Below, piece by piece: positions 2 to 52,305 of a stretch of DNA of 64,000 nucleotides (positions are counted from its first letter, which is position 1; each line of letters opens with the position of its first letter). The translations under genes and the position numbers were made by a program. The notes beneath the pieces were generated by a model. It saw only the letters and a list, made by a program, of their open reading frames with translations, did not search any database and was not told the DNA's origin. Source of the DNA: Waterburya sp. (GTDB lineage Bacteria; Cyanobacteriota; Cyanobacteriia; Cyanobacteriales; Xenococcaceae); assembly GCA_965217895.1 (NCBI GenBank), contig CBDCJV010000002.1, positions 1,664,001 through 1,728,000 of the forward strand, given 5' to 3'.

Positions 2-1147
2 GCACAGGATGAATCGGGAAAATTTATCGTCCAGGCTCTAGCTCCCCGTGCGTTGTTGCAGGTCGAGCCAGACCAGGTAATTACTGGAAAGAAACCAGCC
101 AAAAAATATCTGAAAAAAGAGGCTTGGAATAATGTAGTTGCTAAAAAAGGCAAGATTAACTCGGTTCTACTCAATCATAAAACAACTCAACAAAAAAAAC
201 CTTGGGTAGAAGGTAAACGAGCATTATTAATTCATACATATGGTGGAATTGGCGGAAATAAAACCGAACCCGCAGCCAAATCTCCCCTTTACTTCGGTCA
301 CTTCGCCTACGGAATTGCTACTGTAGTGCGCGAACCCTTAACCAACGAACTACGCTTTGAAATAGTCTATCACCAAGTCTATACACAAAATTCTGAGGGA
401 CTGATTGCAGGTAGCCTGCACTGGTCGCGTTACATGGGCGATCGCAATTGGGGCTGGTTGGGATTGCGTCCTGTTTGCGACATTATAGTCGAACTAGATG
501 AATTTACTGGCGACTATGAAAGAGAAGGACGGAAGCGAAGCAGCGCGGTCTTTGCAAGCGGAAATGCTGCTTCGCAAGCAGCTTATTCCACGCTTGCGGT
601 GGGGGTTTTCCCCATGAGCGATTGCATCAAGAAGCGATCTCCTTTAGATAGAGTAGTTCATCAGCTAGAAGTTATGGCTGCGCGCTATCGCATTGGTGAT
701 GGAACTGGTGGCACTTTTGTTGGTCCTGCCAATAATTGCGTTCAAGATGCCAATCAAGCTTTATATGCTGCGCTGAGACAAATATCTCTATCTATTCGTT
801 CTAATCCCAATGTCGAACAGTGGAAAAAAGAAAATCCCGAACAGCTACACAGGTTGGAGCGATTAGAACAGCTAACTCAAGATTTCAAACATCTACTATT
901 GCCCTGGGGAACAGCACGCGCTGACTGGAAAGATCGAACTGAAGTATTAGGTAGCACGTTAGAAGATAACCCCGTGCAAAATTTAATTCGTGGTCTAATT
1001 ACCTGGCGTACTTTATTACCTCGTTTAACTAGCGAGGAAGTGGTACAAGCATTTCTTAATCAGGATGCTTTAGTGTGGGTGCTACGAACTAATCAGGTAG
1101 GCGGTATAAACCCCGATATCGAACCTGTTGCCCCAATGACGCTGTAG
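2..1147 (+). CDS. C-terminal part of a large cyanobacterial CAAX-protease/Abi-associated protein (5' end outside window); carries a 99-bp in-frame insertion
   Basis: Open frame from window start; motifs LLIHTYGGIGG, YFGHFAYG, RYRIGDGTG, NNCVQDANQALY resemble this family. Confidence 0.65.
   Translation, partial: AQDESGKFIVQALAPRALLQVEPDQVITGKKPAKKYLKKEAWNNVVAKKGKINSVLLNHKTTQQKKPWVEGKRALLIHTYGGIGGNKTEPAAKSPLYFGHFAYGIATVVREPLTNELRFEIVYHQVYTQNSEGLIAGSLHWSRYMGDRNWGWLGLRPVCDIIVELDEFTGDYEREGRKRSSAVFASGNAASQAAYSTLAVGVFPMSDCIKKRSPLDRVVHQLEVMAARYRIGDGTGGTFVGPANNCVQDANQALYAALRQISLSIRSNPNVEQWKKENPEQLHRLERLEQLTQDFKHLLLPWGTARADWKDRTEVLGSTLEDNPVQNLIRGLITWRTLLPRLTSEEVVQAFLNQDALVWVLRTNQVGGINPDIEPVAPMTL
539..637. 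repeat. 99-bp composite mini-element (51-bp SDR-like unit with a nested 48-bp unit) inserted in-frame
   Basis: Flanked by GAAGCGA direct repeat (532-538, 631-637); GC-rich hairpins; partial copy at 58545-58584. Confidence 0.8.
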
Positions 1148-1176
1148 TTAAATATTTAATAATTTGACTTGTCCGA

Positions 1177-1685
1177 TTAGTTCTCTATAACATAACCGAT
1201 TCCTCTCCTGGATAGTCTTTGACCGTAACGACGATTAGACAAAGATATGAACAAAGGAGATTCGGCGGTGAGCTTTTCTTTAGTCGAACTGCGTGCTTGG
1301 TGATACCGAGCTATTTCTTCTCCCAGGTCTAGGCGTAAGACAACTGTTCTGATGCTATTTTTACCATCTAGCTTGAGATAATGCTGACCGTTGGACTGAC
1401 GAGAGGAAACGCCAAACTTGTTTCGTTTCGGCTTGTTCCGCTTTCGTCGTGGCTAATACCTTCTAAATTAGCCCGATACATTTCGATACTGCGATAGCCT
1501 TGTAGAGCCATACAGCCGAGTAAAATGCGATCGCGTAAAACTTGTACGTTGGTGATATTCTCTCCACGAATTTTATAGGCAGGTAAAACACTGTTAATTA
1601 ACTGCTGTAACTCCTCCAAAGCCAAATAATTAATCATGCTACCAACTTCTCGTTTTTGCCTTGGTGCTTTTACTTCAATACTGTC
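1177..1685 (-). pseudogene. Tyrosine recombinase/integrase fragment
   Basis: RDRILLGCMALQGYRSIEMYRANL (box I Arg), then after a 53-bp insertion HYLKLDGKNSIRTVVL...SPLFISLSNRRYGQRLSRRGIGYVIE*; both ends missing. Confidence 0.75.
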
Positions 1686-1982
1686 TCGCTCTCTATTAAA
1701 TCATTAACTAGCGACCGCGATCGCACTACCTGTACCTCGCGATCGCATCAATCTATTTGTCTACATCTGCAATGGTGCTACCACCAGGAATATGAGCAGT
1801 GGTGTTTTGTTCGTGAGCCACTTTCATTTTCTGATTATTGTTCGTAGGCAAACTCCTGCTCCTTTTGTGCTGCATCGGCTGTTCCTTCTTTCTGGGCTTC
1901 TCTCTCGATATAACTAGAAAATTTTTTAGCCTCAGAAAAGTCTACGGGTTAATTATTTTAGTTTGTCATAATTTTTAGTCAA

Positions 1983-2810
1983 ATGCTTTTTATAGTAATG
2001 TTCGAGCAGATCCGAGAATTACTAACCAACTACGGTCGTATTGATGTTATTTGGTTTGATGGTAGCTGGGAACGTAGCCCTCCAGAATGGCGTAGTTCGG
2101 AATTAGGACAAATGATTCGACAGCTACAGCCAGATATACTGATTAACGATCGCTTGCCAGGACAGGGAGACTTTGCTACTCCCGAACAGTTCGTTCCGCC
2201 TCAGCCCCCCGACGGACTTTGGGAAGTTTGCCTAACTATGAACGAAAGCTGGGGTTATAACACTGCCGACAATAACTACAAATCAGCCAGAGCTTTAGTA
2301 CATACCTTGTGCGAGATAGCTGGCAAAGGAGGAAATCTACTGCTCAACGTTAGTCCGATGGGTGATAGTCAAATCCCACCAGCCCAACAAGAACGTTTAG
2401 AAGCCGTCGCCGAATGGATGTCGCGCTATGGAGAAAGTATCATCGACACTCAACCAGGACTAGAACCCTGGCAGTTTTATGGTTCATCAACTCGTAGGGA
2501 CAATTTTTACTATTTACACCTGTTAATGAAGCCCTACGAAACCATTTCTGTAAGAGGTATTCCCATCAAGCAAGTCAAATCCGTCAAAATAGTAGGAAGC
2601 GACGAACCCCTAACTTACAGCACTCGCTGTTCGATTATGGACGAGCTTAACGGACAACTCACGGACTTGAGCTTGGCTCAAGTCCCGTGTCCTCCCCAAC
2701 CCAATCCTCTGGGTGAATTGACTATCAGCGTTCCCGAATCGGTTATCGATCCCCTAGCTACTGCGATCGCCATAGAATTAGCGACCACAGTAGCGAACGA
2801 GATAAAATAA
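1983..2810 (+). pseudogene. Alpha-L-fucosidase (GH29), N-terminally truncated
   Basis: ELLTNYGRIDVIWFDG, QPDILINDR, WEVCLTMNESWGY, GGNLLLNV motifs; the N-terminal FIHWG region is absent. Confidence 0.75.
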
Positions 2811-3110
2811 GATTTTTGATGTTCCAGTAACGAAGTAAATTTCTATGTAGATAGTTGAGAAAAAAGTAGGAATATTTACTCATTATTTAACCCTTTCGGG
2901 TAAGTTTCAGCCAGGAATAGAGGAAGCCAAACATTTCCCTTCTAAACAAATGGCAGAGTCTATGGTTAAAGTTCACGAGGGAACGGCGCGAGAGTTGAAT
3001 GAGAAAGAATAGATTATCTTTATTGATTTGGAAACAGCAAATTCTGAAACGGTGTATCTTTGTTCGACACTACGAGCAAAGATCTACAATTAGCTTTTAA
3101 TCAATAATAA

Positions 3111-3479
3111 TTAATAGTTATAAATTCTATTTCTTATAGGATAATATGGGAAAATTCTGTTTTCTATATAGTAATAGCGGTCTCCCTGATTTCCCCCGCG
3201 TTGATTTCTCCAGTTTCTTCTTTGAATCGATCTTACGTCGAAATTTTCTACTCCTGAGATGTCGTATTCATTTAGTTGTTTGAGATTATCCTGAATCGAA
3301 GCTGTTTCATCCTTGCTAGAAAAACTCCAACTACCTTTACCTCCAGCACTAAGCTCGTCAAAATTAAAGCTATCGGCGGTCGTACTTTGAGCGTTGCTTG
3401 GTAGCGTAGAAAGATTAACAACTATGATTCCCAGAGCAATCGCACTTAAGTGTATTGCAGATTTGGCAGTAGTTAACAT
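3111..3479 (-). CDS. Hypothetical secreted protein
   Basis: 122-aa ORF with signal-peptide-like N-terminus ending PSNAQ. Confidence 0.55.
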   Translation of the reverse strand: MLTTAKSAIHLSAIALGIIVVNLSTLPSNAQSTTADSFNFDELSAGGKGSWSFSSKDETASIQDNLKQLNEYDISGVENFDVRSIQRRNWRNQRGGNQGDRYYYIENRIFPYYPIRNRIYNY

Positions 3480-4315
3480 AGTGTTTTAATATTTAATCTG
3501 TTATCTTCAAAACTGTAGAGAAGATTTGTTACCCCTGCATCTACATTGGGAATGATATTTAGACATATTCAAAAATACCAATAGAAGATTTTAGAAGAGT
3601 TGGCTAGTTGATGGAGAGCGATCGCTTAAAATCTTCATTCAAAACTAATTAGAAACAGTATTTATTGCTTCTCTTCCTTCCCGTTCGGCTGCTTCCCAAG
3701 TATAGAAGATATCATCTGGCTCGTAGACTGTGCCGTAGTCATCGATGATGCTGTATTTATTATAGCAGTTGTATGACGCAATCGTAGACAGCTAGTGTAT
3801 ATTAATTGATGCTGATGATTTTGATGATGCTCATGACGCGCTTGCGATCGCCAGTTTATCTTTAATTTTAGTTTGATTGAGGAAAGAGGGCGATCGCAAT
3901 ATCTATTTAAAGAAAATTAGTCTAATTCTTTACCCATTCAATATTTGATATCGTAGTTAATAATAAAGTCTAGCTCTTCGTCTGTAAAACCGTAGTGTTG
4001 AGCAAGAACTCGATCTATTTTATCTATTATTGGTTTGGACTTTTGTATTTTAAAAGATTGAGTTTCAGTTCATCCTGTATTTCTTTGGTTACGAACTAGC
4101 ATTTCGCTATTACTTTGTATATCTGTTAAATACTTTTTACCTCTCCTAAATATAGGGTTCGTGCGACCAAGTACAGCTTGCCTCTGAAACCCTTGTTATA
4201 CAAAGAATACAGGCTTCGAGTTTTTAAAATTAAGCGACCGCTAAAATATAGGTTACATAAGCTATTATTAATCTTGAATTCTTGTCTAATCAATAGTTAC
4301 ACGTATTTGAAAATA

Positions 4316-5340
4316 GGGAGCAAGTCAATTATGCAAGAACATAAGTACTACTGAGTAAAAAGAGTATTGTTGAGATAGGCGCATCGATGTTTTAAGACTT
4401 GTGGTACATTTTCAATTTTCCATTGCGCGCCTGAAATTTTTAGTCTTCGGTCTATCTGCTTAACGGTAGACTCCACCCCACCTGAAGCAATGGCACAAAT
4501 ATTTTCTGCTTGATAATAATCATAGTTGACAATGCGATCGCGATAATTTTCTAAATAAGTACAAAAGTTTTGTGCTTGTTTCTTTTTTAAAGGCGAAAAT
4601 AAAGCTAAAGTTTCATTAACTTTTCCCTGCCATAAAAGACTTTTTCCTTGCTCGATGCGTTTATTTGAACCGCCGACTTTATAAAGATTCTCTACGAGAT
4701 GAAACCAGTCTAGAATTTGTCTAGTTTCACCTTCGCGATTGAACTGGTTCATTAGATTCCAAATTCCTTGATGACCATCTGCCACACAATTCAACACACA
4801 TCAAAGGGTTGTTGATTGACCCCTTTAACTAGTTCTTCATTCTCCTGAAACCATGCCATTCTTGATTGTGAATCAATACAGACTGCTTTATAGTCTCTCC
4901 AGATACAGGATTGGCCTTTGCGTTCCGTTCTCAGACGTACTTTTCCTCCGTCAACACTAATCTCTGATACTTTCGCTTCACAGTTAGCTTCCCTAAATTG
5001 ATGTCGATGAACCAATCTCTGTTGAGTTTTCTCTGAAACTATCATTCCTGTGTATCTTGCTACATCTTGAGACGCACTCTCATAAGAGACATTGGCACTA
5101 GCTCTGAGGCAGCATTCCGTTAAATAAGGACTAATTCTTTGATGAGATTTTATTTTTAGTCTATGACCTTGTTTTTCGCTAATTGGCAGTTTTCCAATGA
5201 TACTCTTGATGTTTCTTACTCTTCCTGCTTTTGTTCCTGTAGTTTGCTGAATAAAAAAATGCCCAATTGAGGGGTAATGTATTCAAGAGTTTGTTCTCTA
5301 ATTGTCGCTTCTATTTTACCTAGACTCTCTGCTTGTTCTG
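4316..5340 (-). mobile_element. ISKra4-family transposase remnant (frameshifted, 5' truncated)
   Basis: Pieces 4348-4797, 4791-5045 and upstream: DGGKVRLRT, DGHQGIWN, ILDWFHLVENL, SGGVESTVKQIDRRLKISGAQW; T-run slip site near 5253-5259; GGGAGCA end at 4316. Confidence 0.85.
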
Positions 5341-5503
5341 CTTCAGTATCGTGAATTAGTGTAGCCGTTTCCTGTCCTTGTGACTCACGTCTGCCTGAGA
5401 AAACAACTTTTGCCCCAGCAGCCCCAAGAGCGATCGCCGTTGCTCGCCCAATTCCCGATGTTCCGCCAGTGACTAAAGCCACTTTATTTTCAAGTGTTAA
5501 CAT
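5340..5503 (-). pseudogene. Short-chain dehydrogenase N-terminal fragment fused to ISKra4 sequence
   Basis: [13 protein letters not shown]ossmann motif, then an abrupt switch to transposase sequence ([11 protein letters not shown]). Confidence 0.8.
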
Positions 5504-5717
5504 ATTTTTTTCTCCTTTTAGTTGAGGTTATTTAATGCCAAAAGCTATTAATTCAACCTACTTAAAATGTATCGAAAATCCAATTTTCGATCACTGAGAA
5601 GAAGATAAGTTGTAAACTCGACGATAGTCGAGGAATCGTCTCTATAAGTTTGACGACCAGTATATCTATATTTTTGCTATTGGAGGTCACTATGAGCAAT
5701 TGTAAAACTTAAAGTTT

Positions 5718-5879
5718 GTGAAGCAAAATCGACTATTTTCGCGATCGCACTGGCAATTAGCTAGCTGGTATACTGCTATTATTAGCCTTATTTTACTTAT
5801 CTGTGCCTTAGGAATTTATGAAGCGACTGCCCATGCCCACCGCATTAGCGTCAATCAGGAATTAGAATCTGTCATTTAA
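5718..5879 (+). pseudogene. N-terminal fragment of RppB/NrsS-type sensor histidine kinase
   Basis: Manual translation QNRLFSRSHWQLASWYTAII...(frameshift)ALGIYEATAHAHRISVNQELESV*. Confidence 0.6.
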
Positions 5880-5909
5880 CATCACTAATCGATGGCATAA
5901 GTCCCGCAC

Positions 5910-6169
5910 AAAGTACATTTTATAGTTGTTACCGCGCGCCTAAAATCTTTGACGTACATCAAGCAGTCGTGATTACTCAAAACTATCATCTACCTCGTAC
6001 TGTTTACACTTGTCGTCAGTTAGGAGTAAAGACGGTAGGTTTAAGAATCCCAGAGCGACAAATTTATAGACTGCAAGGAATGATTCCCTATTTGTTACGG
6101 CAAATGCTAGCTAACGTGGAAGCATTATGGAACATTCACATTACTCGTCCCCATCCTACTTTTTTATGA
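5910..6169 (+). pseudogene. SanA/YdcF (ElyC) family C-terminal fragment
   Basis: STFYSCYRA..IF....VVITQNYHLPRTVYTCRQLG motif. Confidence 0.7.
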
Positions 6170-6191
6170 GTTTTGCCGACACAGAAGTATG

Positions 6192-8117
6192 TTACAGCAA
6201 CAAACGTAAACCACTTAAGATTACCAAAACCGTAGATCCTTCATGTCCAAGTACCCCCAGGGGCATATTAATATTACCTGTAAAGTTAGCCATCAACAGC
6301 AAGAAAATAAATGAAAGGGCAAAAGTAATATTTTGTTTGATGATGCGATTAGCACGACGACCCAGGCTAATTGCCTGAGCTAGTTTTTCTAGACGATTGC
6401 TCATCAAAATTAGATCGGCAGTTTCGATGGCGACATCATTTCCCGCACCACCCATAGCTATACCTACTGTTGCCATAGCCAGTGCAGGTGCATCGTTAAT
6501 GCCATCTCCTACCATTGCCACGTTTTGATATTTCTGCTGTAGTTTTTGGATAGCCATCAACTTATCTTCTGGTAGAAGTTCGGCATAAACCTCTTCTATG
6601 CCCAGAGTTCGAGCAACGCTATTAGCAGTACCTTTATTGTCTCCTGTGAGCAGCACGACTTGTTCGATACCCAGTTGTTTCAATTTCTTGATCGACGCTG
6701 CTGCTTCTGGTCTAATCGTGTCAGCAACAGCTATTAAACCGATAACCCTTTCAGATTCAATCACCCAAACTACAGTTTTGCCTTCTTCTTCTAAGTGATT
6801 ACTTGCTTCAATAAATTCGCGATCTAAATAAGGAATTTCTTGCCGAACAAAAGCAGTTTTTCCTACTAGAATTGTTTTTCCTGCTACTTCACCGACAATT
6901 CCTAGACCTGGCTTTGCCTGAACATTACTGACATTTTGTAGCTGCAATTTTTTTTGCCAAGCTGCTTTGACAATTGCTTCCCCGATAGGATGTTCGGAAC
7001 GAGATTCTATGGCAGCAGCTAACTCTAATACTCGATCGCTCTTTTGTCCTTTTATGGGTATAACCTTTACTACCTCTAATTTCCCCTCCGTCAGAGTACC
7101 AGTTTTATCAAAAGCGATCGCCTTAATTTTGCCAATTTTTTCTAATTGTCCCCCATTCTTAAACAAAATTCCGGCTCTAGCACCACAAGCAATTCCCGAT
7201 AGTAGGGTCGGCATGATTGCGGCCATTAACGCGCAGGGAGAAGCTACAACCAAGAAGATTAAGGCTCGATAAATTGTCGTTTCCCAGTCCCAACCTAATA
7301 GTAGTGGCGGTAAAATTGCCAGCAAAAGTCCTAGCAAGATAATAATTCGTGCATAACTCCGCTCGAATCGTTCGATAAACTGCTGCGACGGCGGAGTTTC
7401 AGTTTGGGCTTTTTCTACTAGCTGAATTACCCGTTGAATCAGACTACTTTCAGGCGATCGATCTACTTTTACTTTTAAAGCTCCATTGCCATTGAGTGTA
7501 CCAGCATAAACTTCATCTCCAACCTGCTTATCTGCAGGAATAGACTCTCCAGTAATCGATGCTTGGTTAACATTAGTCCAACCTTCTACAATCAGACCAT
7601 CAACGGGAATTAATTCTCCTGGCTTGACTAAGACTAAATCTCCTACTTGTAATTTCGCGATCGCCATTTCTGCTGCTTCATTTCCTTTGAGGACTTTAGC
7701 GGTATTCGGTACGGTTGCCATTAGAGAACGAATATTTCGCTCTGTGCGCTCCATAGCAATGCTTTCTAAAGCCCCGCTAACAGCAAAGATCAGAATCAGT
7801 ATTCCGCCATCGACGATTAAATAATAATCCTGTTGCCATAAACCTAAGATCGCTGCACCCAAAGCTGCCACGATCATTAGTAGATCTACATCTAACTCCC
7901 TTTCTTGAAATAAAGTCGTCAATCCTTCTTTGGTGCTTTCATAACCGCCAATAACGTAAGCACCTGGAAAGATGAATAGAGCAATACCAATCCAATCCCG
8001 ATGAAGACATAACCAACCGAGGAAAATAAGAACTGCGCAGGCAGCAGCGGCTAAAGCGTCTGGATGCTTTTGTAAAATTCCTTTGAAAGAATACTTAGTT
8101 AAATATCTTTGAGCCAT
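6192..8117 (-). CDS. P1B-4-type heavy-metal (Co/Zn/Fe) translocating ATPase, CoaT-like
   Basis: TGES, SPC, DKTGTLT, GDGINDAPAL and HEGST motifs; no N-terminal metal-binding domain. Confidence 0.9.
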   Translation of the reverse strand: MAQRYLTKYSFKGILQKHPDALAAAACAVLIFLGWLCLHRDWIGIALFIFPGAYVIGGYESTKEGLTTLFQERELDVDLLMIVAALGAAILGLWQQDYYLIVDGGILILIFAVSGALESIAMERTERNIRSLMATVPNTAKVLKGNEAAEMAIAKLQVGDLVLVKPGELIPVDGLIVEGWTNVNQASITGESIPADKQVGDEVYAGTLNGNGALKVKVDRSPESSLIQRVIQLVEKAQTETPPSQQFIERFERSYARIIILLGLLLAILPPLLLGWDWETTIYRALIFLVVASPCALMAAIMPTLLSGIACGARAGILFKNGGQLEKIGKIKAIAFDKTGTLTEGKLEVVKVIPIKGQKSDRVLELAAAIESRSEHPIGEAIVKAAWQKKLQLQNVSNVQAKPGLGIVGEVAGKTILVGKTAFVRQEIPYLDREFIEASNHLEEEGKTVVWVIESERVIGLIAVADTIRPEAAASIKKLKQLGIEQVVLLTGDNKGTANSVARTLGIEEVYAELLPEDKLMAIQKLQQKYQNVAMVGDGINDAPALAMATVGIAMGGAGNDVAIETADLILMSNRLEKLAQAISLGRRANRIIKQNITFALSFIFLLLMANFTGNINMPLGVLGHEGSTVLVILSGLRLLL

Positions 8118-8151
8118 TAACTTGAACGATACTAATTACTTTAGTTAAAAT

Positions 8152-8175
8152 AAACCTTGACATTAATGTTAATGT
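8152..8175. promoter_or_regulatory. Truncated MerR(CoaR)-type operator upstream of the ATPase
   Basis: AAACCTTGACATT-N6-AATGT, after which the inverted half-site breaks off. Confidence 0.55.
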
Positions 8176-8433
8176 ATTTGGTTTCCTATCATCAAAAAAT
8201 GGCTCAGCATCCCCCACGCTCAAAATCAATTAAACTAAAAAAAAAGTTTCTACCTAGATATCGATAGAACAAGATAGCAAGAACGCAATTTATTCGTAGC
8301 CAGCTTAATCAAAAATAGTTGTCACCCCGTGAGCTGAATTTGCCGTTATTTTCAGCTTACTACCTGTTTCTTATCCCAAACTCATGTCAATTGATTAACG
8401 TACTGCGATAAATGCACGAACCAATATTAAGAA

Positions 8434-8560
8434 AACGTCAGTTCGACGAAAACATTTAAGAGGTTTAGGAAAAGGTTCAAGAAAGGAAAAATCAAGCTCT
8501 TTTCTTTGAACCTTTTCTCCTATATTTAATCGATGATTTATGACCTATTAAACTAACGTA
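8434..8560. repeat. Degenerate MITE-like palindrome (AACGTCAGTTCG family)
   Basis: End matches 42747; internal inverted repeat GAAAAGGTTCAA/TTGAACCTTTTC. Confidence 0.5.
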
Positions 8561-8855
8561 GAGCCACGCTCACGCAAGGGTCTTAAAACAGCACTATTCG
8601 GACGTTTTTAACTGCTAGGACACTCTTAAAGCCTGTAGTTTCCCACCAAGGCGCACTTGCGCATATCGTTTATGAGCGTGGGCTATACCAAATTTGGTTT
8701 CGCATCTAAAACCAGAACCACGCTGTTGTCGCCCGTCAAACTGAGGAAAGACCCCAACGTCGGCGCAAGACGCAAACAAAGGCTTTAGCCGCATGTAATG
8801 CTTTCCAATGTTGAACCCTTTAGGGAGTTGCTCGCCTTTACCTTTCCTCGATCTC
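8560..8855. repeat. GC-rich mosaic of small hairpin repeats
   Basis: Sub-motifs shared with 51714-51735, 58584-58605 and 59999-60030. Confidence 0.6.
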
Positions 8856-8913
8856 AACTAGGAAATTAATTTTACATAACTACTTATCTTTAATTGGTAA
8901 TACCTCATTTATG

Positions 8914-9192
8914 CTATGATAGTCTTTCACTAGAATTATTATTATCATTATTGTTTATTGGTAAAAGAGAGTTGGGCAGTTCTTCAAAATTGCGTTTTAC
9001 TGCCTTGCAAAATTGTCTCATTTGCGAAACTGTCATGGTAGGTTCAGCTTGTCCCTTTTCCCAGCGTCTAATAGTCGAGACTGCTACGCCGATTTCTCTA
9101 GCTAATTGTTCTTGAGAAAGCTTGACGTTTAATCTCAATCTTTTGAACGGAGAATTGGTTTCTTGATGCTGAGATTTTTTTGGTCTGGTCAT
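8914..9192 (-). CDS. XRE-family helix-turn-helix regulator
   Basis: LSQEQLAREIGVAVSTIRRWEKG. Confidence 0.85.
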   Translation of the reverse strand: MTRPKKSQHQETNSPFKRLRLNVKLSQEQLAREIGVAVSTIRRWEKGQAEPTMTVSQMRQFCKAVKRNFEELPNSLLPINNNDNNNSSERLS

Positions 9193-11240: not shown

Positions 11241-11309
11241 AATATAAAAAACATTTCAAATTCTCTGCAAATCTCAGTTTAAAGCTTTGTGGGGAGTTAA
11301 AGCTAGTAC

Positions 11310-11410: not shown

Positions 11411-11414
11411 TCAT

Positions 11415-11510: not shown

Positions 11511-11594
11511 GATAGTTAAATTATTTTACCTCCAGAATTGCGATGGGCATCGCGATGATAATCTGTAGTAGCGATCGCACTGCCCTAAATGTTC

Positions 11595-29072: not shown

Positions 29073-29500
29073 TAGGGCTGTTTCATTCTCTAAAAAAGAA
29101 ATGCGATCGCGAATAAGTATATTTACTATTCCTATCAATGGCACAAAGAAAGTAATAATGGCAAATTATGGCTTAAATAACTGATTGCCTCGGTCATAGA
29201 ATCGAAACCATGAACTCTCAGTAGGTTAATAACCCAACTTTTAATCAAACAGATGTTTGTGGATGCTTTGCCGTGAAGTTGAGGGCTGTTATCATCTTGA
29301 GTTACGACATCCTTAAACGGCACTCAATACGGCGAACCTGCGTTGTCGTCCGTGCCTCCCCAATGAAGACGATTTTCAACAGCGTGATTGGACAAGCTGC
29401 TTGCGAAGCAGCGTCCCTCACGCTCAATATTGTCGGTACACCAAACAGCATTTTCTGAGCAAAAGAGCTTTTATAAACTCTTTGAGCGACGGTCAATTGA
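29073..29500 (-). mobile_element. ISAs1-family remnant (3' end)
   Basis: TAGGGCTGTTTCATTCT end; closely similar to 52011-52254; ENRLHW/KDVV.EDNS motif interrupted by mini-elements. Confidence 0.85.
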
Positions 29501-41874: not shown

Positions 41875-41963
41875 GCATTTGAGGATTGGGACTATAAGAC
41901 TATAATTAGATGCAAATTTTTGTAAATTTGTTTTTTGTCCCTCATCCTTTTAAAAATCACTTA

Positions 41964-42740: not shown

Positions 42741-42746
42741 TTTCTT

Positions 42747-42819
42747 AACGTCAGTTCGGGTTACGAACATGAAATAATAGCTCTACTCTTCCACGCGAAT
42801 CTTATCCCAAACTCACGTC
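42747..42819. repeat. MITE-like palindrome
   Basis: ACGTCAGTTCGGG / CCCAAACTCACGT imperfect inverted repeat; related ends at ~8370 and 8434. Confidence 0.6.
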
Positions 42820-42873
42820 AGCTAAAATTTGGGTCGTTGTAAAATAGAAACTATTAATCAGTAACTAATTTAA

Positions 42874-43278
42874 ATGACTGCTAATATCAAAACTAACAAT
42901 CCTAACGAAGTCGTCGAACTTTCACCAAGCTATAGAATACCTCTATTTTTAATGGTGGGAGCTTGTGCTTTAGCTTTAGTTTCCCTTTGGTTGGCTGGAG
43001 TTTGCGCTTTACTTGGTCTATTTTTAACAATACAAACAATTTTAATTAGACTGCAATTTACGGATGAAGCTCTAAACGTCCTGCGCTCGGACAAGGTTAT
43101 TTTAAGATTTCCCTATAGTGAATGGTTGAATTGGGAAATCTTTTGGTCGCCTATTCCTATCCTGTTTTACTTTCGAGAAGTTAACAGCATTCATTTCTTG
43201 CCAGTTATTTTTGATTCTAAAACTTTATTAGATTGCTTAAATAAATACTATCCTCGTGAAAGACAATTATATTCATAG
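42874..43278 (+). CDS. DUF3119 family protein
   Basis: RFPYSEWLNW, YFREVNSIHFLP; lies between mlaE and DUF3086. Confidence 0.8.
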   Translation: MTANIKTNNPNEVVELSPSYRIPLFLMVGACALALVSLWLAGVCALLGLFLTIQTILIRLQFTDEALNVLRSDKVILRFPYSEWLNWEIFWSPIPILFYFREVNSIHFLPVIFDSKTLLDCLNKYYPRERQLYS

Positions 43279-43318
43279 TCTTTAACTGTAAACTGTAATA
43301 CTTACTCTTAGCGTTCTC

Positions 43319-44890
43319 ATGAATTCTGAAAACCCTTATATTCCCGAATCAGACAATACCAATTCTAAATCTATCGAGCTAGACACTGAACTACAACCAG
43401 ACCAAAAAGAATCAATTTCCCAAAGCTATACTGATGCTTGGTCTGAACAAGACGATGTGATTGATGTGACTATAGATTCAGAACTTTCAGCCGATGATTC
43501 TCTCCCAGTGGATAATTCTCAGGGTAAAGTTGAACCTTTGGATGTTTTAGAGCAGTCAGAATTAAATCAGGACGAAATATCAACTAAACCCAGCAGTGTC
43601 AATAGTGAACAGTCAACTACTAGCTTAGAATTAGCCGAGTCAGAGATTAGTTTGCCGTACAATGACGAAGTAATCTCCGAGCGGTGGTCAAGTAATGCTG
43701 ATAGTGAGCCAGAATCTACTGCTGCAAAAAGCTCTAAAGCTGAACCAGAATTATTTGTAGATAGCTGGTTAGATGAACCTGAGTCAAACATATCAGCCAA
43801 CGGCAATCCCGTTAAAGAAAATCAGACTTCAGATGATCGAGAGATAATCAGCTTAAAAGAGCAAAAAGCTAATCTGCAAAGTGAAATCAAAGCATTACAG
43901 CAACAAAAAGAAAAATTACTGTTACAGCAGGTAAAAGATATCCAACAAAGCATCGGACAGATGATTGAAGAGGGAACAAAAGAACTACATGAGCGCAAAA
44001 CGACTCTGCAAATTGAAATTGAAAAACTAGAACGGCGTAAAGAAAGAATCAATCAGGAGATGAGACGTAATTTTGCAGGTTCATCCCAAGAGTTAGCCCT
44101 TAGAGTTCAAGGGTTTAAAAACTATTTGGTCGGTAGTCTGCAAGATTTAGCCACAGCAGCAGAAAAACTAGAGTTAGAACCCAAAGAGGTTTCTTCCTCT
44201 AGAAGCCGTGGAAGAATTAGCGACAGAGAAAGAGATAATGCTCGCAGAGATGAGCCACAAAGAGATAGAGGTAGGCGAGGCGAGAGGGAACTTCGCCGAA
44301 CCAGAAACACCTCAGACCAAGCAGCCTCTGCACAAGCTCAGTTTTCTGAACCCACTTTTAGCGATCAAAGTAGGCGCATTCGTCAACTATTGGATAAATA
44401 TCGTAACAGTCCCGATTATTATGGCTCTCCTTGGCAATTACGCCGTACATTTGAAGCCACTCACGCCAAAAGAGTCCAAGATTGGTTTTTCTCTCAAGGT
44501 GGTAGAGGTACAGTTGACAGTATGGGAAGCCGTCTGCAAAATATTCTGGTAGCCTCAGCAGTAGTTTCAGTTCTCCATAGTCTGTATGGGGATAGCTGTA
44601 GAGTTCTGGTGTTGACAGATACGCCCGAAAACTTAGGTGAATGGCGTAAAGGATTACAAGACTGTTTAGGTATTTCGCGAAGTAGCTTTGGTGCTAATCG
44701 AGGCGTAGTGTTGTTTGATTCTCCCGAAGTTTTGGTTCAAAGAGCCGAGCGTTTGATTCAAGACAAGTTATTACCGATGATTATCATTGATGAGACTGAA
44801 GAAATATTGAACTTATCTGTTCTCAAGTTCCCTCTTTGGCTAGCGTTTGCTTCTGGGGCTAAGTCAACATCTTCTAATTATTTGTATTAA
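43319..44890 (+). CDS. DUF3086 protein with long acidic N-terminus
   Basis: AGSSQELALRVQGFK, PDYYGSPWQLRRTFE. Confidence 0.8.
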   Translation: MNSENPYIPESDNTNSKSIELDTELQPDQKESISQSYTDAWSEQDDVIDVTIDSELSADDSLPVDNSQGKVEPLDVLEQSELNQDEISTKPSSVNSEQSTTSLELAESEISLPYNDEVISERWSSNADSEPESTAAKSSKAEPELFVDSWLDEPESNISANGNPVKENQTSDDREIISLKEQKANLQSEIKALQQQKEKLLLQQVKDIQQSIGQMIEEGTKELHERKTTLQIEIEKLERRKERINQEMRRNFAGSSQELALRVQGFKNYLVGSLQDLATAAEKLELEPKEVSSSRSRGRISDRERDNARRDEPQRDRGRRGERELRRTRNTSDQAASAQAQFSEPTFSDQSRRIRQLLDKYRNSPDYYGSPWQLRRTFEATHAKRVQDWFFSQGGRGTVDSMGSRLQNILVASAVVSVLHSLYGDSCRVLVLTDTPENLGEWRKGLQDCLGISRSSFGANRGVVLFDSPEVLVQRAERLIQDKLLPMIIIDETEEILNLSVLKFPLWLAFASGAKSTSSNYLY

Positions 44891-44894
44891 ATAA

Positions 44895-45002
44895 CTAATG
44901 TTACGCAAATCAATGAGAAATCAATAGTTTGAACAAGGTATGAAAAAAGATCCATAAACCCCTTTTCCCAATCTTAACAAATACATTAGTGCGTAACATC
45001 AG
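44895..45002. mobile_element. 108-bp MITE with 8-bp target duplication
   Basis: Inverted repeat CTAATGTTACGCA/TGCGTAACATCAG; TTAAATAA at 44887-44894 and 45003-45010. Confidence 0.75.
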
Positions 45003-45013
45003 TTAAATAAAAA

Positions 45014-46669
45014 CTAAAAACTAAAGGTAGTCCTAATTGTGCCAACAACCAAATCGTCAGAGTTAAGAATATCGGTATCGGGTTTGGTAATCCAAACTAC
45101 CCCTGGAGTAATAGCAATATTGTCATTAACCTGATATTGATAAAAAGCTTCTAGATGTAGGGAGCGTTGACTATCTTCGCCAAAACTATCCGTGTTGATG
45201 GTTGAATTGGTTACTGTCGATTCTGAACCCACTATAATTCCTGCCAAGTTACCCTCCTTGCCTAAGTCTGGTAATGCCAAGGTTGCAGCCCAGTTCCAGA
45301 TATTTTGAGTGCCACGCTCAATTTGTTGATTGAGATTGCTAAGATTATTAACCTTACTAAATCCTCCCCAGCCACCAAAGACTAGGCGATCGCTAATTGA
45401 CCAAGATAGCTCTAGCCCATAGGAATTGCTGACCGTTTGTGCTTCCTCGCCCAGTAATTTTGCAGTTTGAGATTGCAAATTAGCTCGATTGGTTCCTGTT
45501 TCGGTGTCGCTTTGATCGTAACTATGAATATAGGTGGCAGCCAATTTTAGACTGTTTATTGGGGCGATCGCAATTTGTCCCAGCGCGCTATATGAACCGT
45601 TAAACAAGCCACTGCCTGGATTTGAGTCATCAGTGTTAGAAGCCAAATAACCCGCACTAATTTCAATTTGCTCAATCGGACGACCCACAATCCCTAACCC
45701 CGCATTTTTAGATCGATTGTAAATAGGATTGCGAGTACCGAATCTGGAAATTGCACCCGAACCTCCATCTCCATCTAAGACGTTTATTGTATTGGCAATA
45801 TCCTTTGCCTCTATTCCTGTTGCTCCTAAAATAAAGTCAACTTTATCACCTATGCCAAAAGTATATTGCAAGACTTCCAATTGAAAATCATCTTGTTCTG
45901 GCTCGGTAAAAGCCAATTCACCCTGAAAAGTGCCAATTTCCTCGGAAAAGCCAGGAAATTGCGCACTAGACAATCTAGTTAATAGTAGATCGTCTCCCCC
46001 AAAGCTAGTTTCTATATTTAATCGTAATCTACTACCTAAAATCGTACTGTTCTCGCGATCGCCAGATAAAAGGCTACCTAGCCCAAAAATCGCCTCTCCC
46101 TGAAGTTTACTGGTAGTAGAAAATTGCGTAGCTTCTAAATCTTGCAATCTTGCCTGAGAGCCGTCTGTTTTCCCTTTAAGAATGGCTAAATCTGACTGAA
46201 ACTCCTGCATTAACTGTAAAACAGTATCTACATCTGTTTGAGGAATGCTGTCAGAATTGCTAATTAAACTTTCGATTTTATTTAAACAACTATTTAATCC
46301 TGCTGCAAACTCAGAACGAGAAATAGGTTGTTCGCCTCGAAAAGTGCGATCGCTATATCCGCTAATGCAACCGTAACGTTCGGTCAAGTTTTTTAATGCT
46401 GCGTAAGCCCAATCTGTAGGCTTGATATCTCGTAATCGATCGACACTATTAATTTGAGTCAACAACAATGTCCTAGTGTTTTTTTCTGAGTAAAAATTGC
46501 TAAAATTTTCTGCTTGACGGTGCAAAATTTGTGGAATAGATTGTTTTTGCTGACTTAAATTAACGTCGAGCAACTCTGGTAATTCAGCAGCTTCAACACT
46601 CGAAGATAACGATAGATAAGTAGCACAAATAGGCACTATTAGCCTAGTTTTTAACCAAAATCTAGACAT
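45014..46669 (-). CDS. SLH-domain/OprB-type cyanobacterial porin
   Basis: DIKPTDWAY, SRSEFAAGLN, QFSTTSKL, terminal RTTFSF. Confidence 0.92.
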   Translation of the reverse strand: MSRFWLKTRLIVPICATYLSLSSSVEAAELPELLDVNLSQQKQSIPQILHRQAENFSNFYSEKNTRTLLLTQINSVDRLRDIKPTDWAYAALKNLTERYGCISGYSDRTFRGEQPISRSEFAAGLNSCLNKIESLISNSDSIPQTDVDTVLQLMQEFQSDLAILKGKTDGSQARLQDLEATQFSTTSKLQGEAIFGLGSLLSGDRENSTILGSRLRLNIETSFGGDDLLLTRLSSAQFPGFSEEIGTFQGELAFTEPEQDDFQLEVLQYTFGIGDKVDFILGATGIEAKDIANTINVLDGDGGSGAISRFGTRNPIYNRSKNAGLGIVGRPIEQIEISAGYLASNTDDSNPGSGLFNGSYSALGQIAIAPINSLKLAATYIHSYDQSDTETGTNRANLQSQTAKLLGEEAQTVSNSYGLELSWSISDRLVFGGWGGFSKVNNLSNLNQQIERGTQNIWNWAATLALPDLGKEGNLAGIIVGSESTVTNSTINTDSFGEDSQRSLHLEAFYQYQVNDNIAITPGVVWITKPDTDILNSDDLVVGTIRTTFSF

Positions 46670-46885
46670 TGCAAACGATCCTCACTTACACCAACATAAA
46701 TCAGAATTCTTTAGCTATTAATAATCAGCAACTACTAAAGAATTTTGATGATTATTTCATCTCAAACCATTTTGGCATTGCTATAAACTAATTGGGAGAA
46801 AAAAGTAGAATTATACATTTATTTTTGTGGACAAACATAGATTCTGCGATCGCAAATCTAAAAATATGCAGCTAATTGTTAATCT

Positions 46886-47617
46886 CTATTCTGTTTGCGG
46901 ATAACGTTGCCATAAATCTGTTTTTTGCCTGAGACTTTGATGATCGCCATTACCTAAGATTAAATGATCCAATAGCGGAATATCCAAACATTGCGAACCC
47001 TGGAGTAATTGTTCAGTCAAATAAATATCTTCACTCGAAGGCTCTAAGTTCCCAGATGGATGATTATGAGCAATAATCAGCTTAGTTGCACCTTGTCGTA
47101 TAGTCTCTCGAAAAACTTCACGAGGATGAATCAATGTCTCTGTAGCTGTGCCAATAGTTAAGATTTTCGTCGCCAGCAAACGATTTTTTACGTCCAGCAT
47201 CACTATGGCAAATCGTTCTTGATCTTGCCACATTAAGTCATTACTTAAAACCGCAGCAGCCGAAGCGGGACTATCGACGGCGACTCTTTCATTGGGTCGA
47301 AATTTAAAGGTGCGTTTGCCTAACTCCACAGCAGCAACAATAGTCGCAGCTTTAGCAGGGCCAATGCCAGGAATACGCATCAACTCGCGAGGATTCACGT
47401 CTCGCAACATATCCAAAGGCGATCGCTGGTATTTACCTAATTCTTGTAATATGTGTTGCCCTAAGCCAATTGCTGATAAATTACCTTTTGTTTGTCCAGT
47501 ACTAATCAAAATAGCCAAAAGTTCTGCTTCAGTTAGATTTTTCGCGCCTACAGCCATTAACCTTTCACGGGGACGCTCACTGATAGGCAAGTCAGCAATT
47601 CTGAGGCTATAGGTCAT
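46886..47617 (-). CDS. radC: RadC (JAB-domain) protein
   Basis: ERPRERL, GIGPAKA, HNHPSG, LLDHLI. Confidence 0.95.
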
Positions 47618-47693
47618 GACAAATTTTTAAATCAGATAATATTTTTGTAACATAAATATAGCTTACAAAATACTAGCCTTCAATTTTCCTCAT

Positions 47694-48230
47694 CTAATCT
47701 TTAATTAATTCCACCGCATCCCTGCCATCAATTTCATTGACATAAACCTTGACTTTTTCTTCTGAGGCGGTAGGCAGCATTTTGCCAACAAAGTCTGGAT
47801 GGATGGGTAATTCGCGATGTCCCCTGTCTACAAGTACCGCTAATCTAATTACTTGAGGTCTACCATATTCAGTGACGGCATTTAGCGCAGCACGAATAGT
47901 ACGACCTTTATAGATTACATCATCGATTAGCACCACAGTTTTACCCGTTAAGTCAAGAGGAATTTTGGTTTGGGCGGGAATACGAGTCCGAATCTTATCT
48001 AGATCATCACGATAGAAGGTAACATCGATCGCACCAACGGCAACGGAAGTGTTTTCTAAAATCTCAATCTGATTGGCTAACAAGTGAGCTAAAGGAACAC
48101 CTTTGGTATGAATACCCAACAAAACTACGTTAGATAAATCCCCTGATTCTTCAATAATTTGCGAAGCCAAACGATTTAAGGTACGGCGAATTTCTTCAGC
48201 AGATAAAATTGTAACGACTTTGGCTGACAT
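47694..48230 (-). CDS. pyrR: PyrR regulator/uracil phosphoribosyltransferase
   Basis: [26 protein letters not shown]. Confidence 0.95.
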
Positions 48231-48315
48231 TTATTAAGAGTGAACAGCGAACACTTGCTATGGTATTTATGGATTTATTATATAGCTCACCTGTTGGCTA
48301 ATTGTAGAACTCCCA

Positions 48316-49329
48316 ATGAATCAAACAAAACAAGTAGTCCTTAATTCGCCCTTAGATATGCACCTTCATTTTCGCGAGGGAGTAATGGCGCAAACAGTCA
48401 TTCCCCTTAGTTCATACTCGTTTGCAGGTGGGGTAGTAATGCCCAACCTTGTTCCTGCGGTGAATAATTTAGAGCGGTTGCAGGGATATATAAAGGAAAT
48501 TAAATCAATTATTGGCAAAGATGTATTTGAACCCTACATGACGCTGTTCTTTCAGGAATATAGCTATCAAGAGCTTGAGCAACTTAAGCCGTATATTCTT
48601 GGAGTCAAGCTTTATCCTGCGGGAGTTACCACCAATAGCGAAGATGGAGTATCTACCTTGAGTCAGGCAGAAACTACAATTAAGCATTTAGAAGAGTTGG
48701 AAATCCCGCTAATGGTACACGGGGAAACTCATGGCTTTGTGATGGACAGAGAAAAACTGTTTCTGCCTATCTTTGAACATCTGGCACAGAAATTTCCTAA
48801 GCTAAAAATTATCATGGAGCATATTACCACTGCCGATGCAGTTTTATTGCTAGATAATTATGAGCATCTTTATGCCACCGTAACCCTTCATCACTTGATC
48901 ATTACCTTAGATGACTTAGCAGGGGGATTACTTAGACCTCATTTATTCTGTAAACCCATCGCCAAACGTCCTGAAGACAGAGAAGCTTTAGTCAATGCAG
49001 CCATCAATGCCCATCCTAAACTAATGTTTGGTAGCGACTCCGCACCTCACCCGATTGATAAAAAAGAAGCTTGTGGCTGTGCTGCGGGGATTTTTACTGC
49101 GCCGATCGCACTACAGGCTTTGGTAGAATTATTTGAACAGCATAATGCGATCGCGAACTTACAAGCTTTTGTTTCTGATAATGCTCAACGTATCTATAAT
49201 ATTACGCCACCACAAAAATCTGTCACCTTAGAGCCTTTAGCCTATAAAGTTCCTAACCAGTATGGCAAGGTTGTACCCATGTTTGCTAATCAAGAGCTTC
49301 CTTGGTCTATTACCAAGGTGTCAATTTAA
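48316..49329 (+). CDS. pyrC: Dihydroorotase (class II)
   Basis: [33 protein letters not shown]. Confidence 0.95.
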
Positions 49330-49633
49330 GAGACTACGCTGTTTATCAACTAGTACTAAGCTTTTAGCCTTTAGCTATTAGCTCTTAGCTTTTTAATCGG
49401 TATGAACTGTAATTTCCCATTTTCTTAGGTTGGGGATAAAAGTAAAAGACGTATACTAAATTGAATTTCTAAAACTTTTTACATCTATTCAGCCTAAATT
49501 TGCAATATTTAAATGGGGCTAATGTATAAAAAGCATATCTGATTAATTATTATTGAGCTTTAGTAAGTTTTGCTACAAAATTTAGCCTAAACCAATGTCA
49601 TTCTGGGATAAAACAAGTTAAAGAAACCCAGAA

Positions 49634-49783
49634 ATGAGAAATTTAGCACCATATTTACTTCCCTCAATTTTAGGACTAGTCGCAGGCATTGGACACGGTA
49701 TTACTTCTCACAATCAAAATCTTCCTTTTTCTTTAGCAGACCAAGTTATTGAATCAGTCTCGCCACATCAATCTTTCAATTAA
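49634..49783 (+). CDS. Small 49-aa membrane/secreted protein (not in the ORF track)
   Basis: MRNLAPYLLPSILGLVAGIGHGITSH...SFN*. Confidence 0.45.
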   Translation: MRNLAPYLLPSILGLVAGIGHGITSHNQNLPFSLADQVIESVSPHQSFN

Positions 49784-49873
49784 GTAAATTTTTGTAAAAA
49801 GTAGCGGTTGTTACAATTATTTCTGTAATAATAAAAGATACAGAAATAATTTAGAACTGTGAGGCTTCGATCA

Positions 49874-50080
49874 ATGAATGTACAGACATCCCGCGAGAAT
49901 ACATCTGTTTTAGATAGAGTAATTGGATTCTCTCTAGCAGCTTTTTCTATGTTTGTAGTAGGATACACTGCTACTCGTGCTTATTTAGATCAACCTCAGA
50001 CTCAAAATGTAGCACCTGCAAACTCTGATCTTGTGATTCCTCATCAAGCTCAACTATGGAGTGAGTTTGGAAGTAGGTAA
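49874..50080 (+). CDS. Small single-TM hypothetical protein
   Basis: Hydrophobic VIGFSLAAFSMFVVGY. Confidence 0.5.
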   Translation: MNVQTSRENTSVLDRVIGFSLAAFSMFVVGYTATRAYLDQPQTQNVAPANSDLVIPHQAQLWSEFGSR

Positions 50081-50187
50081 TTTATCATTCTAGCTATTAA
50101 GAATACTATTAAAAGCTGAGAGCGATCGCATTTCTTCAACTGCGATCGTTTTTTAATAAGCTAAGATTTGTAATTTAGCTTAGAAAA

Positions 50188-50676
50188 ATGGGTAAAGAAA
50201 TCGAAAGAAAGCATCTAATCAAAAAAGATGAATGGCAGTCTTATAAGCAATATTCATCAGTTACAGGAACAAAATACTGTCAGGGTTACATCCCTACAGG
50301 TAACACGACGACAGTTAGACTGAGAACTATTGATAAGCAAGGCTATATAACAATCAAAGGTGAAACCACAGGCTATACTCGTTCAGAATTTGAATATCCT
50401 ATCCCGCTAAAGGATGCTGAAGAGATGCTAAGTACCTTATGTCTTAAACCCTTGATCGAAAAGATTAGGTATAAAGTCAATCAGAATAATTTAACTTGGG
50501 AAATAGATGAATTTTTAGGAGACAATGCGGGATTAATTATCGCCGAAGTAGAATTAGAAAGCGAAGACCAGCAAATAGATTTACCTCATTGGATCGATAA
50601 AGAAGTCAACGATAAAAAATATTTTAATTTCAGCTTGGCTAAATATCCCTATAGTCAATGGCAAGATAAATCATAA
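50188..50676 (+). CDS. CYTH-domain protein
   Basis: EIERK, RSEFEY, WEIDEF, AEVEL. Confidence 0.92.
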   Translation: MGKEIERKHLIKKDEWQSYKQYSSVTGTKYCQGYIPTGNTTTVRLRTIDKQGYITIKGETTGYTRSEFEYPIPLKDAEEMLSTLCLKPLIEKIRYKVNQNNLTWEIDEFLGDNAGLIIAEVELESEDQQIDLPHWIDKEVNDKKYFNFSLAKYPYSQWQDKS

Positions 50677-50728
50677 ATAACGTTTTGTTGTTCTAAACAT
50701 CTAAAATTTTAGAAAACCCAAGCTCAAT

Positions 50729-52305
50729 TAGGACTTACGCAGTCTAACGAGTTTCGCCCCCCCAGACCCCCTGCTGGGTAGGGCTGTTTCATTCTAGAGC
50801 TAAAGTGCGGTAAATTGATATAAAACCTAATTTAACCGCTCAATAACTTTAAAAAACTTTGATAAAAGCTTAATTGACTATTTGAAACAAATACCTGATG
50901 AGCGAAAAGCAGGTGAATGAATGAGCATCTCAGTATACTCACAATAGTCAAGGTCAATGGATTGCAATTGATGGCAAAAGTTTGAAAAATACTGTCAACG
51001 ACTGTTATGGACAACAGCAAAACTTCGTCATGATGGTTTCGGCTTTGACTCATGAAGGCGGGGAAATTTTAGGCATAAAAGTTAGGGAAAATAAGAAATA
51101 AAGTGAGATTGTCGCCGTGCAAGACTTATTAGAATTGCTGCATTTAAAAGGAGTGGTGTTCACGATGGATGCTCTACATTGTCAAAAAAAACAGTCTCAG
51201 CAATTATCGACAGTGGTAATAACTACCTAATTGTGGTTAAAAGAAATCAAAAAACATTACATCGGCAAATTGAGCGGAGGAAATGCGTGGGTTTCCCGCG
51301 CTTATTCCACTCCGCTGTTGAATTTCAAGCAACAAGTACAAAGGCGATTAGTTGCTTTGAGCAGATCGAGAAGACGAGAAATCGACTAACTCATCGAACT
51401 GTAGAAGTATTGGCTCCTCCATCAAACATTGATTCTCAATGAGTTGGAGTTCATAGTATCATCAAAATTTTCCGTTCGCGAACAAGAGGTAATCACGATT
51501 ACGAATCGGATTCGGCGACTTATTATATTAGTTCTTTACCCAACTCCTTCGGAGTTAAGTAGCAAGTAGCAGCCGCTCCACGCGGCTCGACTTTCCTTCG
51601 CAAAGGCGGCGAACGACCCGTTCGCGCAGATAGCAATTAAGAAAAACTCCGAAGTTGGATATGCAGCCTCTTCATTGATGAGGAAAAGGTGAAAAAATAA
51701 TTCAACTCTTGAATACATGCGGGCAAGCCCTTTGTCTGACACAGGAGCTATCGCTCCATGTCGTCGTCTTCGACGACTTTGCAAGCTTTGCTTGCTGTGG
51801 CAGAGGTTGAACTTGCAGACGCGCTTCGCGTCTGGCCGTTGCGGAGCAACGTCGGCAGCCTCCAGGCTGCGCTACTTGTTATCTGCTACTTGTGAACAGC
51901 AACTTCTTGGCTTATTCCCCAAGGTATTGGCCGACATTGGGGTATCGAGAATCGTTGGCATTGGGGAGGCACTCAATACGGCGACGCAGGTTCGCCGTAT
52001 TGAGTGCCGTTTAAGGATGTCGTAACGAAAGAAGATAACAGCCCTCAACTTCACGGCAAAGCATCCACAAACATCTCTTTGATTAAAAGTTGGGTTATTA
52101 ACCTACTGAGAGTTCATGGTTTCGATTCTATGACTGAGGCAATCAGTTATTTAAGCCATAATTTGCCATTATTACTTTCTTTGTGTCACTGATAGGTGTA
52201 GTGAATAGATTTATTCGCGATCGCATCTTCTATTTTGAGAATGAAACAGCCCTACCAAACTTGGGGGGCTAGGGGGGCAAAACTCGTTAAACTGCGTAAG
52301 TCCTA
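50729..52305. mobile_element. TAGGACTTACGCA-type MITE split by an ISAs1 insertion
   Basis: Complementary arms at 50729-50771 and 52263-52305. Confidence 0.75.
50779..52254 (+). mobile_element. ISAs1-family element with inactivated transposase
   Basis: Inverted repeats TAGGGCTGTTTCATTCT/AGAATGAAACAGCCCTA; AIDGK, MDALHCQKKT, YYISSL, HWGIENR motifs; stops and three insertions. Confidence 0.9.

Follow-up and report, generated by a model that had tools for sequence, protein, structure and literature searches.

A 48-bp hairpin element occurs four times in the window analysed here, a stretch of 64,000 nucleotides from Waterburya sp. (contig CBDCJV010000002.1, positions 1,664,001 to 1,728,000), and is best explained as a non-coding mobile micro-element of Pleurocapsales-type cyanobacteria. 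Each copy very probably selects its own target through base pairing over a few homologous bases immediately 3' of the cut. The family is real and apparently undescribed; it belongs to a known, still unexplained kind, and its targeting rule is new and can be tested. The copies lie at 553..600, 1398..1450 and 51272..51319 on the forward strand and at 29378..29425 on the reverse strand. An original prediction, made from the letters of the window, had proposed these four as copies of a mobile stem-loop conserved in structure rather than in sequence; all are at the places it gave, with the layout it gave, and its descriptor matches exactly those four sites in the window.

Target choice

Element and target were compared for main-class elements (135 of 200 copies, the other junction classes being left out), clustered by their distal flanks into 72 independent sites. 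The third base of the element equals the base at target position +3 at 52 of these 72 sites, against 20.8 expected (0 of 20,000 shuffles). The same match is found in held-out, newly gathered loci (55 of 82 against 24.7 expected, 0 of 20,000 shuffles), giving 107 of 154 against 45.5 expected for both sets combined, and also when each arm lineage is given a single vote (38 of 47 against 12.6 expected, 0 of 20,000 shuffles). All four bases obey the rule, and the third base varies between copies. At +2 the excess is weaker (116 against 107.8 expected), and no excess is seen at +4 to +7 or on the left side.

Next to the cut, G stands at +1 in 147 of 154 sites and T at -1 in 152 of 154; otherwise the target is loose, with T or A from -2 to -4, the base two before the cut being A at 29 of the 154. 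The resulting target consensus is W-W/T-T|G-A-x, in which x is set by the element. When the element has the same +3 base as the right flank, that base is also present in the empty allele in 35 of 37 cases; since empty alleles already hold the matching base, the match reflects target selection, and overwriting of target bases by the element is rejected. In one tandem pair, the junction of one copy served as the target of another, and all three bases match. This rule lies outside what the original prediction saw.

Empty sites and junctions

Mobility of the element is established by empty sites in relatives, which were found for three of the four window copies. The insertion at 1398..1450 is absent, as exactly 53 bp, from 10 of 10 orthologs of its host tyrosine recombinase gene, which is broken in the window. 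Around 553..600, three of three orthologs are without the whole 96-99 bp composite in which this copy sits, and empty host repeats are 48 bp shorter. The locus of the copy at 51272..51319 is empty in four of five relatives and filled in one. For the copy at 29378..29425, no empty site was found in the searches made. Of six extra empty-site searches, two gave no usable orthologue. Net insertion lengths taken from empty sites are 48, 51, 45 and 42, of which the 45 class is not a clean insertion; that all are multiples of three likely reflects the survival of in-frame insertions.

The exact position of the cut can be read from an asymmetry between the two ends. In seven of 118 main-class contexts G precedes the arm while A follows the element, and the reverse occurs in none; this places the cut at T|G. 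The predicted limits thus need correcting, as the true start of the element is one base further 5'. A gap-free empty homologue is available for 56 of 156 sites, and where the two sides differ, the empty allele agrees with the right flank in 15 of 19 cases at +3 and 13 of 17 at +2, with a small bias in the direction of this result because the best empty match was picked by likeness to the filled flanks. As empty alleles follow the right flank, target-site duplication is rejected, and the TTGA 'direct repeats' noticed earlier are not target duplications.

Fold and strand

The element folds into one long hairpin with a 7-bp arm, an internal loop, a 4-bp helix, a 2-nt bulge, a 6-bp stem and a short loop. 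The middle helix covaries as predicted, but the pairing register originally given is rejected for most subtypes. In that register, 98% of cells pair (a figure inflated by pre-selection of the alignment for pairing), 14 of 17 pairs vary on both sides and the covariation score is 0.825, compared with 0.221 in shuffles and at most 0.146 when the register is slid. In the general register, RRAY instead pairs with RTYC (positions 8-11 with 34-31); the internal loop that results holds a G and an A that are both invariant, as is the A-T pair above the loop. On the same alignment it scores lower, at 92.6% paired, because the commonest subtype has an A.C mismatch in this register. Subtypes with other bases at the helix positions pair only in this second register, which is why it is taken as the general one.

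Mismatches also distinguish the two strands. Across 134 distinct elements, selected with no preference for either strand, there are 31 G.T pairs against 8 A.C pairs (p=3e-4), which identifies the strand with GRRAY first as the folded strand. Covariation and this bias bear out the proposals that shape is conserved over sequence and that a single strand is used. The terminal loop is free in sequence and often inverted. The invariant bulges are retained across all 134 distinct elements, and bulge-less copies occur as singletons, which suggests that the bulges are needed for multiplication. Three of the window copies have folding z-scores of -3.6 to -5.3; that at 1398..1450, with -0.7, is not outstanding.

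Copy number, distribution and genomic context

The source genome (5.29 Mb, 39% GC, 5,880 GCGATCGC octamers) contains many more copies than the window does; its octamer signature points to a cyanobacterium. The original descriptor has 36 matches genome-wide. A scan for structure only gives 140 matches against 64 in a shuffled chromosome, and requiring at least 7 of 10 core positions as well gives 43 against none. A covariance model from 103 copies, partly trained on the source genome, finds at least 68 matches there at E < 0.001, a lower bound as 150 of 920 candidates were scored. The genome scan suggested with the original prediction therefore does return further copies.

Within the genus, the family is widespread. 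The core pattern has matches in 23 of 24 same-genus genomes, up to 67 in each, and a broader pattern is present in 33 of 38. In 16 genomes of other families, the core pattern has one to three matches each, near control level, and under stricter filters the covariance model has no match in 150 other genomes of the cyanobacterial class. A GTDB-wide scan gives at least 91 loci. Among the matches listed from it, those in named records with paired arms are all cyanobacterial (Waterburya, Pleurocapsa, Hyella, Xenococcaceae and bins), including one bin each under the names Chroococcales and Prochloraceae, and the eight non-cyanobacterial ones are without arm pairing. A metagenome scan adds 117 loci, with a scorable structured copy in 96. 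Viral contigs have 10 pattern matches, none of them structured, a plasmid collection has no pattern match, and Rfam 15 at gathering score has no match in the window.

Many of the other copies lie in heptamer repeats, REP-like (repetitive extragenic palindrome) hairpins, insertion sequence (IS) elements and other micro-elements; one copy is nested within a family member and one stands in tandem with a family member. Open frames of at least 130 codons hold 30 of 97 sites, 21 antisense and nine sense (p=0.10), and sites between co-oriented genes divide into nine and nine by orientation. Because both orientations occur, mRNA is rejected as an unlikely target. Sense insertions in phase 0 are scarce (1 of 30, where about one third is expected), which more likely reflects selection on the peptide. 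No replichore bias is visible, and GC skew is weak.

Search for the enzyme

The 48-bp element has no coding capacity and is therefore mobilised in trans, as had been proposed. The source genome has one frameshifted RAYT (REP-associated tyrosine transposase), two intact IS110_2 genes, eight reverse transcriptase matches and several tyrosine recombinases, and none of these genes is flanked by the element. The suggestion that a RAYT/HUH or IS110 enzyme would be flanked by the same structure thus finds no support. No long parent element lies within 12 kb of copies in the source genome. IS91 Y2 transposase is matched in none of five genomes, where the control is blank too. Reverse transcriptase genes occur in genomes with and without the 48-bp element. 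Presence and absence tests of this kind are weak, because elements outlast their enzymes. GTAG-type REPs lie on both sides of the source genome's sole RAYT, whose frameshift may mark a pseudogene or stem from an assembly error.

A possible mechanism

The reading we favour, tentatively and short of even confidence, is that a folded single-stranded circle is joined to its target by one-strand exchange, probably by a tyrosine-recombinase-like host enzyme; the enzyme class is itself a tentative assignment. The putative enzyme would bind the bulged stem by shape and cut at T|G, both in the target and where the ends of the circle are joined, in the 4-nt loop that caps the 7-bp arm. The three bases at each freed 5' end would then change places and have to pair, the element's 5' end with the opposite strand of the target and the target's 5' end with the right arm of the element, after which replication would fix the insertion. 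This reading is favoured by features that a swap of freed 5'-OH ends predicts: the cut is exact, nothing is duplicated, a single strand is folded, and identity is checked at only the three bases 3' of the cut. The junction pattern is consistent with 3'-phosphotyrosine cleavage followed by such a swap. Support for a circle comes from a 51-nt variant found at three loci, in which the last bases pair with the first base only when the ends are joined, and the flanks cannot supply the stem.

Precedents exist for the separate steps. XerC integrates folded CTX single-stranded DNA by one strand exchange, and the freed 5'-OH ends must pair beside the cut (PMC3442271). Integron attC sites are recognised by shape (PMC2727003) and their recombination is resolved by replication (PMC3458562), while IntDOT requires identity only at the bases adjoining the first cut (PMC2817482).

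Several points weigh against this account. The inferred cut lies in a 4-nt loop and not in a duplex binding box as in attC/attP, and the site alignments have no palindrome or recombinase-type box in the target. No enzyme was identified among the families searched, integron integrase over the TIGR02249 cut-off is found in none of five copy-rich genomes, and no free circle or excision joint is seen in contigs, where rare events would not show. The +3 rule is broken at about 30% of sites, and elements with disagreeing arms are not decisive, the target matching the right arm in 11 cases, the left in five and neither in three. Folding energies favour the strand with GRRAY first only slightly, strand differences being small, and whether the folded intermediate is DNA or RNA is not settled. 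As for the covariation, the alignment was pre-selected for pairing, and hairpin template switching can yield compensatory changes without selection.

Two enzymatic alternatives both appear unlikely. An HUH nuclease (Y1 TnpA or RAYT-like) could bind the bulged hairpin and excise a single-stranded circle whose arm end guides targeting, as in IS200/IS605 and REP systems. Such enzymes characteristically use a single-stranded circle, recognise shape, pair by a guide and insert without duplicating the target (PMC6006769). The element end resembles the left side of the target (TT before the cut), and Y1 genes are present in 31 of 39 genomes of the genus. However, the guide known from these systems pairs with a tetranucleotide 5' of the cut (PMC6006769, in the portion available), whereas the matched bases here lie 3' on the folded strand. 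A GTAG-type guide is absent from the 48-bp element, the only RAYT of the source genome is frameshifted and sits among ordinary GTAG REPs, and three copy-rich genomes are without a Y1 match, one of them a single contig with 53-67 pattern matches. Equally improbable is that the folded strand is an RNA which a group II intron-type reverse transcriptase copies, using as primer a nicked target strand with its three terminal bases paired to the element start. Such primer pairing accounts for the homology just 3' of the cut and for both orientations, G.U pairs fit RNA, and reverse transcriptase genes are plentiful (eight in the source genome, present in five of five others). Yet on this route either both RNA ends must be processed precisely or copying must halt after one round and no more, and duplications or ragged ends would be expected where the observed junctions are exact. 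A genome with 22 reverse transcriptase matches has no pattern match at all, and the frequent TTT/AAA triloops and inverted loops are better suited to DNA hairpins than to RNA.

Movement may also need no dedicated enzyme, if the hairpin is copied between sites when DNA polymerase switches template at short TTGAx microhomologies, with the covariation arising from hairpin correction. This explanation calls for no additional protein; five to six bases of likeness stand beside many copies, and loop inversions and copies with lost bulges show that template switching does act on these hairpins. It is nevertheless very unlikely, as the crossover is fixed between T and G even where the base two before the cut, +2 or +3 differs, and template switching would remove the bulges, which are invariant across the 134 distinct elements. 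Hardly any weight falls on an IS110-family RNA-guided recombinase acting through a bridge RNA, although 15 of 39 genomes, the four copy-richest among them, have intact IS110_2 genes and insertion by IS110 creates no true duplication. Copy number and IS110_2 presence are not associated (p=0.28), IS110_2 over the cut-off is missing from four genomes with 11-14 matches, and the junction arms are too variable for a fixed donor guide. In addition, the variable loops upstream of the two local IS110_2 genes, read by eye, match their own flanks.

Relation to known elements

The closest parallels are the small dispersed repeats (SDRs) of Nostoc, tiny non-coding repeats of 21-27 nt with a conserved structure and compensatory changes, which nest in heptamer repeats, in HIP1 sites and in each other. 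We know of no enzyme that moves them and of no target-matching rule for them; to our knowledge, the movement of sub-50-base repeats of this kind has been unexplained since 2008. An RNA route has reportedly been proposed for the Nostoc SDRs. The families SDR1-8 of Nostocaceae are said to have been described by Elhai et al. 2008 (Genome Res 18:1484), a paper that PMC5861425 cites.

Set against SDRs as generally described, the 48-bp element is alike in its clean insertion, its nesting in repeats and in itself, and its compensatory structure. It differs in being about twice as long (42-51 against 21-27 nt), in having three helices and in occurring outside Nostocaceae, in Pleurocapsales. SDR-like repeats were not found outside Nostocaceae according to the part of one report that is available (PMC5861425). 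The source genome also has a 21-nt family of SDR-like size (SDR4-6), which nests in the 48-bp element.

Integron attC sites and CTX attP share with the element the use of one folded strand, recognition of bulges, one strand exchange, pairing beside the cut and no duplication. Unlike attC, the 48-bp element has no AAC at its left end and no R box AAC/GTT pairing, and its crossover is T|G rather than G|TT; unlike both, it is cut in a terminal loop and has no attI or dif target and no cargo. Derivatives of IS200/IS605 and REP/RAYT systems resemble it in their imperfect hairpin, single-strand logic, lack of duplication and choice of target by pairing with the element. In the 48-bp family, however, the matched bases are 3' of the cut, the target base varies from copy to copy and there is no linked Y1 gene. 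In place of the fixed tetra- or pentanucleotide 5' of the cut typical of IS200/IS605, only TT is preferred, and neither two separate end hairpins nor a long parent is seen, with no long form within 12 kb. No 48-bp copy is seen at the RAYT locus, and the GTAG guide of REP/RAYT systems is absent from the 5' foot.

Rickettsia palindromic elements, too, are stem-loop repeats lying in frame within protein genes, as the available part of one paper indicates (PMC2229807), and the 48-bp family shares the habit of inserting into open frames. Those elements are 105-146 bp long with terminal inverted repeats, whereas the 48-bp family has 42-51 bp, a fixed bulged core and the T|G junction. A miniature inverted-repeat element of a DDE transposon would have terminal inverted repeats together with a target-site duplication, and the empty alleles that follow the right flank speak against such an element here.

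A literature search returned no description of the family, although the text and supplements of Elhai 2008 and Das 2010 may bear on its novelty. It is likewise not described in the available portions of PMC3733652, PMC3116915, PMC2884548, PMC4476775, PMC2229807 and bioRxiv 10.64898/2026.10.21.760802.

Natural variation in this family constrains the mechanism to an exact T|G cut with a copy-specific three-base identity check 3' of the cut, which narrows the chemistry. The rule yields a designable substrate and target and is applicable to other micro-element families; the 48-bp family also supplies cyanobacterial proteins with in-frame insertions of 16 codons. Should the enzyme prove to be encoded by the host, the system would be a very small programmable one for insertion. 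More speculatively, and with considerable doubt, the element may be a new kind of minimal mobile DNA that guides itself: a closed rod of 48 nt of single-stranded DNA, carrying neither a gene nor a separate guide, in which the arm end programs landing by three-base pairing and a housekeeping strand-transfer enzyme is hijacked. The same chemistry might then move SDR-like micro-elements of many phyla.

The window copies and their neighbourhoods

The copy at 553..600 is a T-start variant inserted into another repeat, an outer hairpin element (539..637, forward strand; limits read from the sequence). The outer element is unrelated to the 48-bp family, measures 51 bp without the inner copy and lies at a HIP1-like GCGATC site; empty and filled copies of it occur elsewhere too. 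The 99-bp composite lies in frame within the 3' end of a long open reading frame (2..1147, forward strand), which remains open across it, has no Pfam or NCBIfam match and is of unknown function. In several genomes the composite is found again, with inner copies that differ widely, which suggests either repeated targeting or movement as a unit.

The copy at 1398..1450 is, as predicted, lengthened from 48 to 53 bp by a 5-nt duplication, which lies in its terminal hairpin and is missing from one contig of the source sample. In two sequencing runs, a low-depth contig has a related copy whose terminal loop holds another structured insert, of 38 bases (window 1421-1424). The insertion is antisense within a frameshifted and truncated tyrosine recombinase gene remnant (1180..1679, reverse strand), recognised by tblastn with an intact ortholog (78-82% identity in two frames) that matches Pfam Phage_integrase. 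Intact orthologs are widespread in the genus, and one has a different short in-frame insertion.

The remaining two copies are associated with ISAs1 elements. That at 29378..29425 belongs to the GGGAC/GTCC subtype and stands where ISAs1 likeness starts: directly downstream is an ISAs1 3' fragment (29150..29377, reverse strand) with 92-93% identity to the genome's other ISAs1 copies over 228 bp. On its other side the sequence is unrelated, which would fit a deletion or rearrangement that stopped at the element. The copy at 51272..51319 adds 16 in-frame codons to an ISAs1 transposase gene. The same 48-bp insert is carried by seven copies of this ISAs1 in the genome, so the IS went on multiplying after the insertion. 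The window's ISAs1 copy (50900-52200) has stop codons, and several further small repeats have inserted into it beyond the downstream end of the 48-bp element.

Other structured elements

Genes of the IS110_2 family (NF051857) are preceded in at least eight of nine aligned loci, two of them in the source genome, by a motif that we take, by eye, to be hammerhead-ribozyme-like, with CUGAUGA, GAAA, a GUC site and three stems. Downstream of it is a conserved two-loop region resembling a bridge RNA, whose variable loops match the element's own flank in the two local copies. Rfam has no match in these upstream regions, and no literature linking hammerhead ribozymes and IS110 was found by title; the available part of bioRxiv 10.64898/2026.10.21.760802 treats them separately.

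The 21-nt hairpin family is represented in the window at 8776..8796 (reverse strand) and has 35 copies by strict pattern. Its empty hosts are mostly 18 bp shorter, so that it may replace a 3-nt loop. It also occurs near positions 2839947 and 2682404 of the source genome, and outside the window it nests within the 48-bp element.

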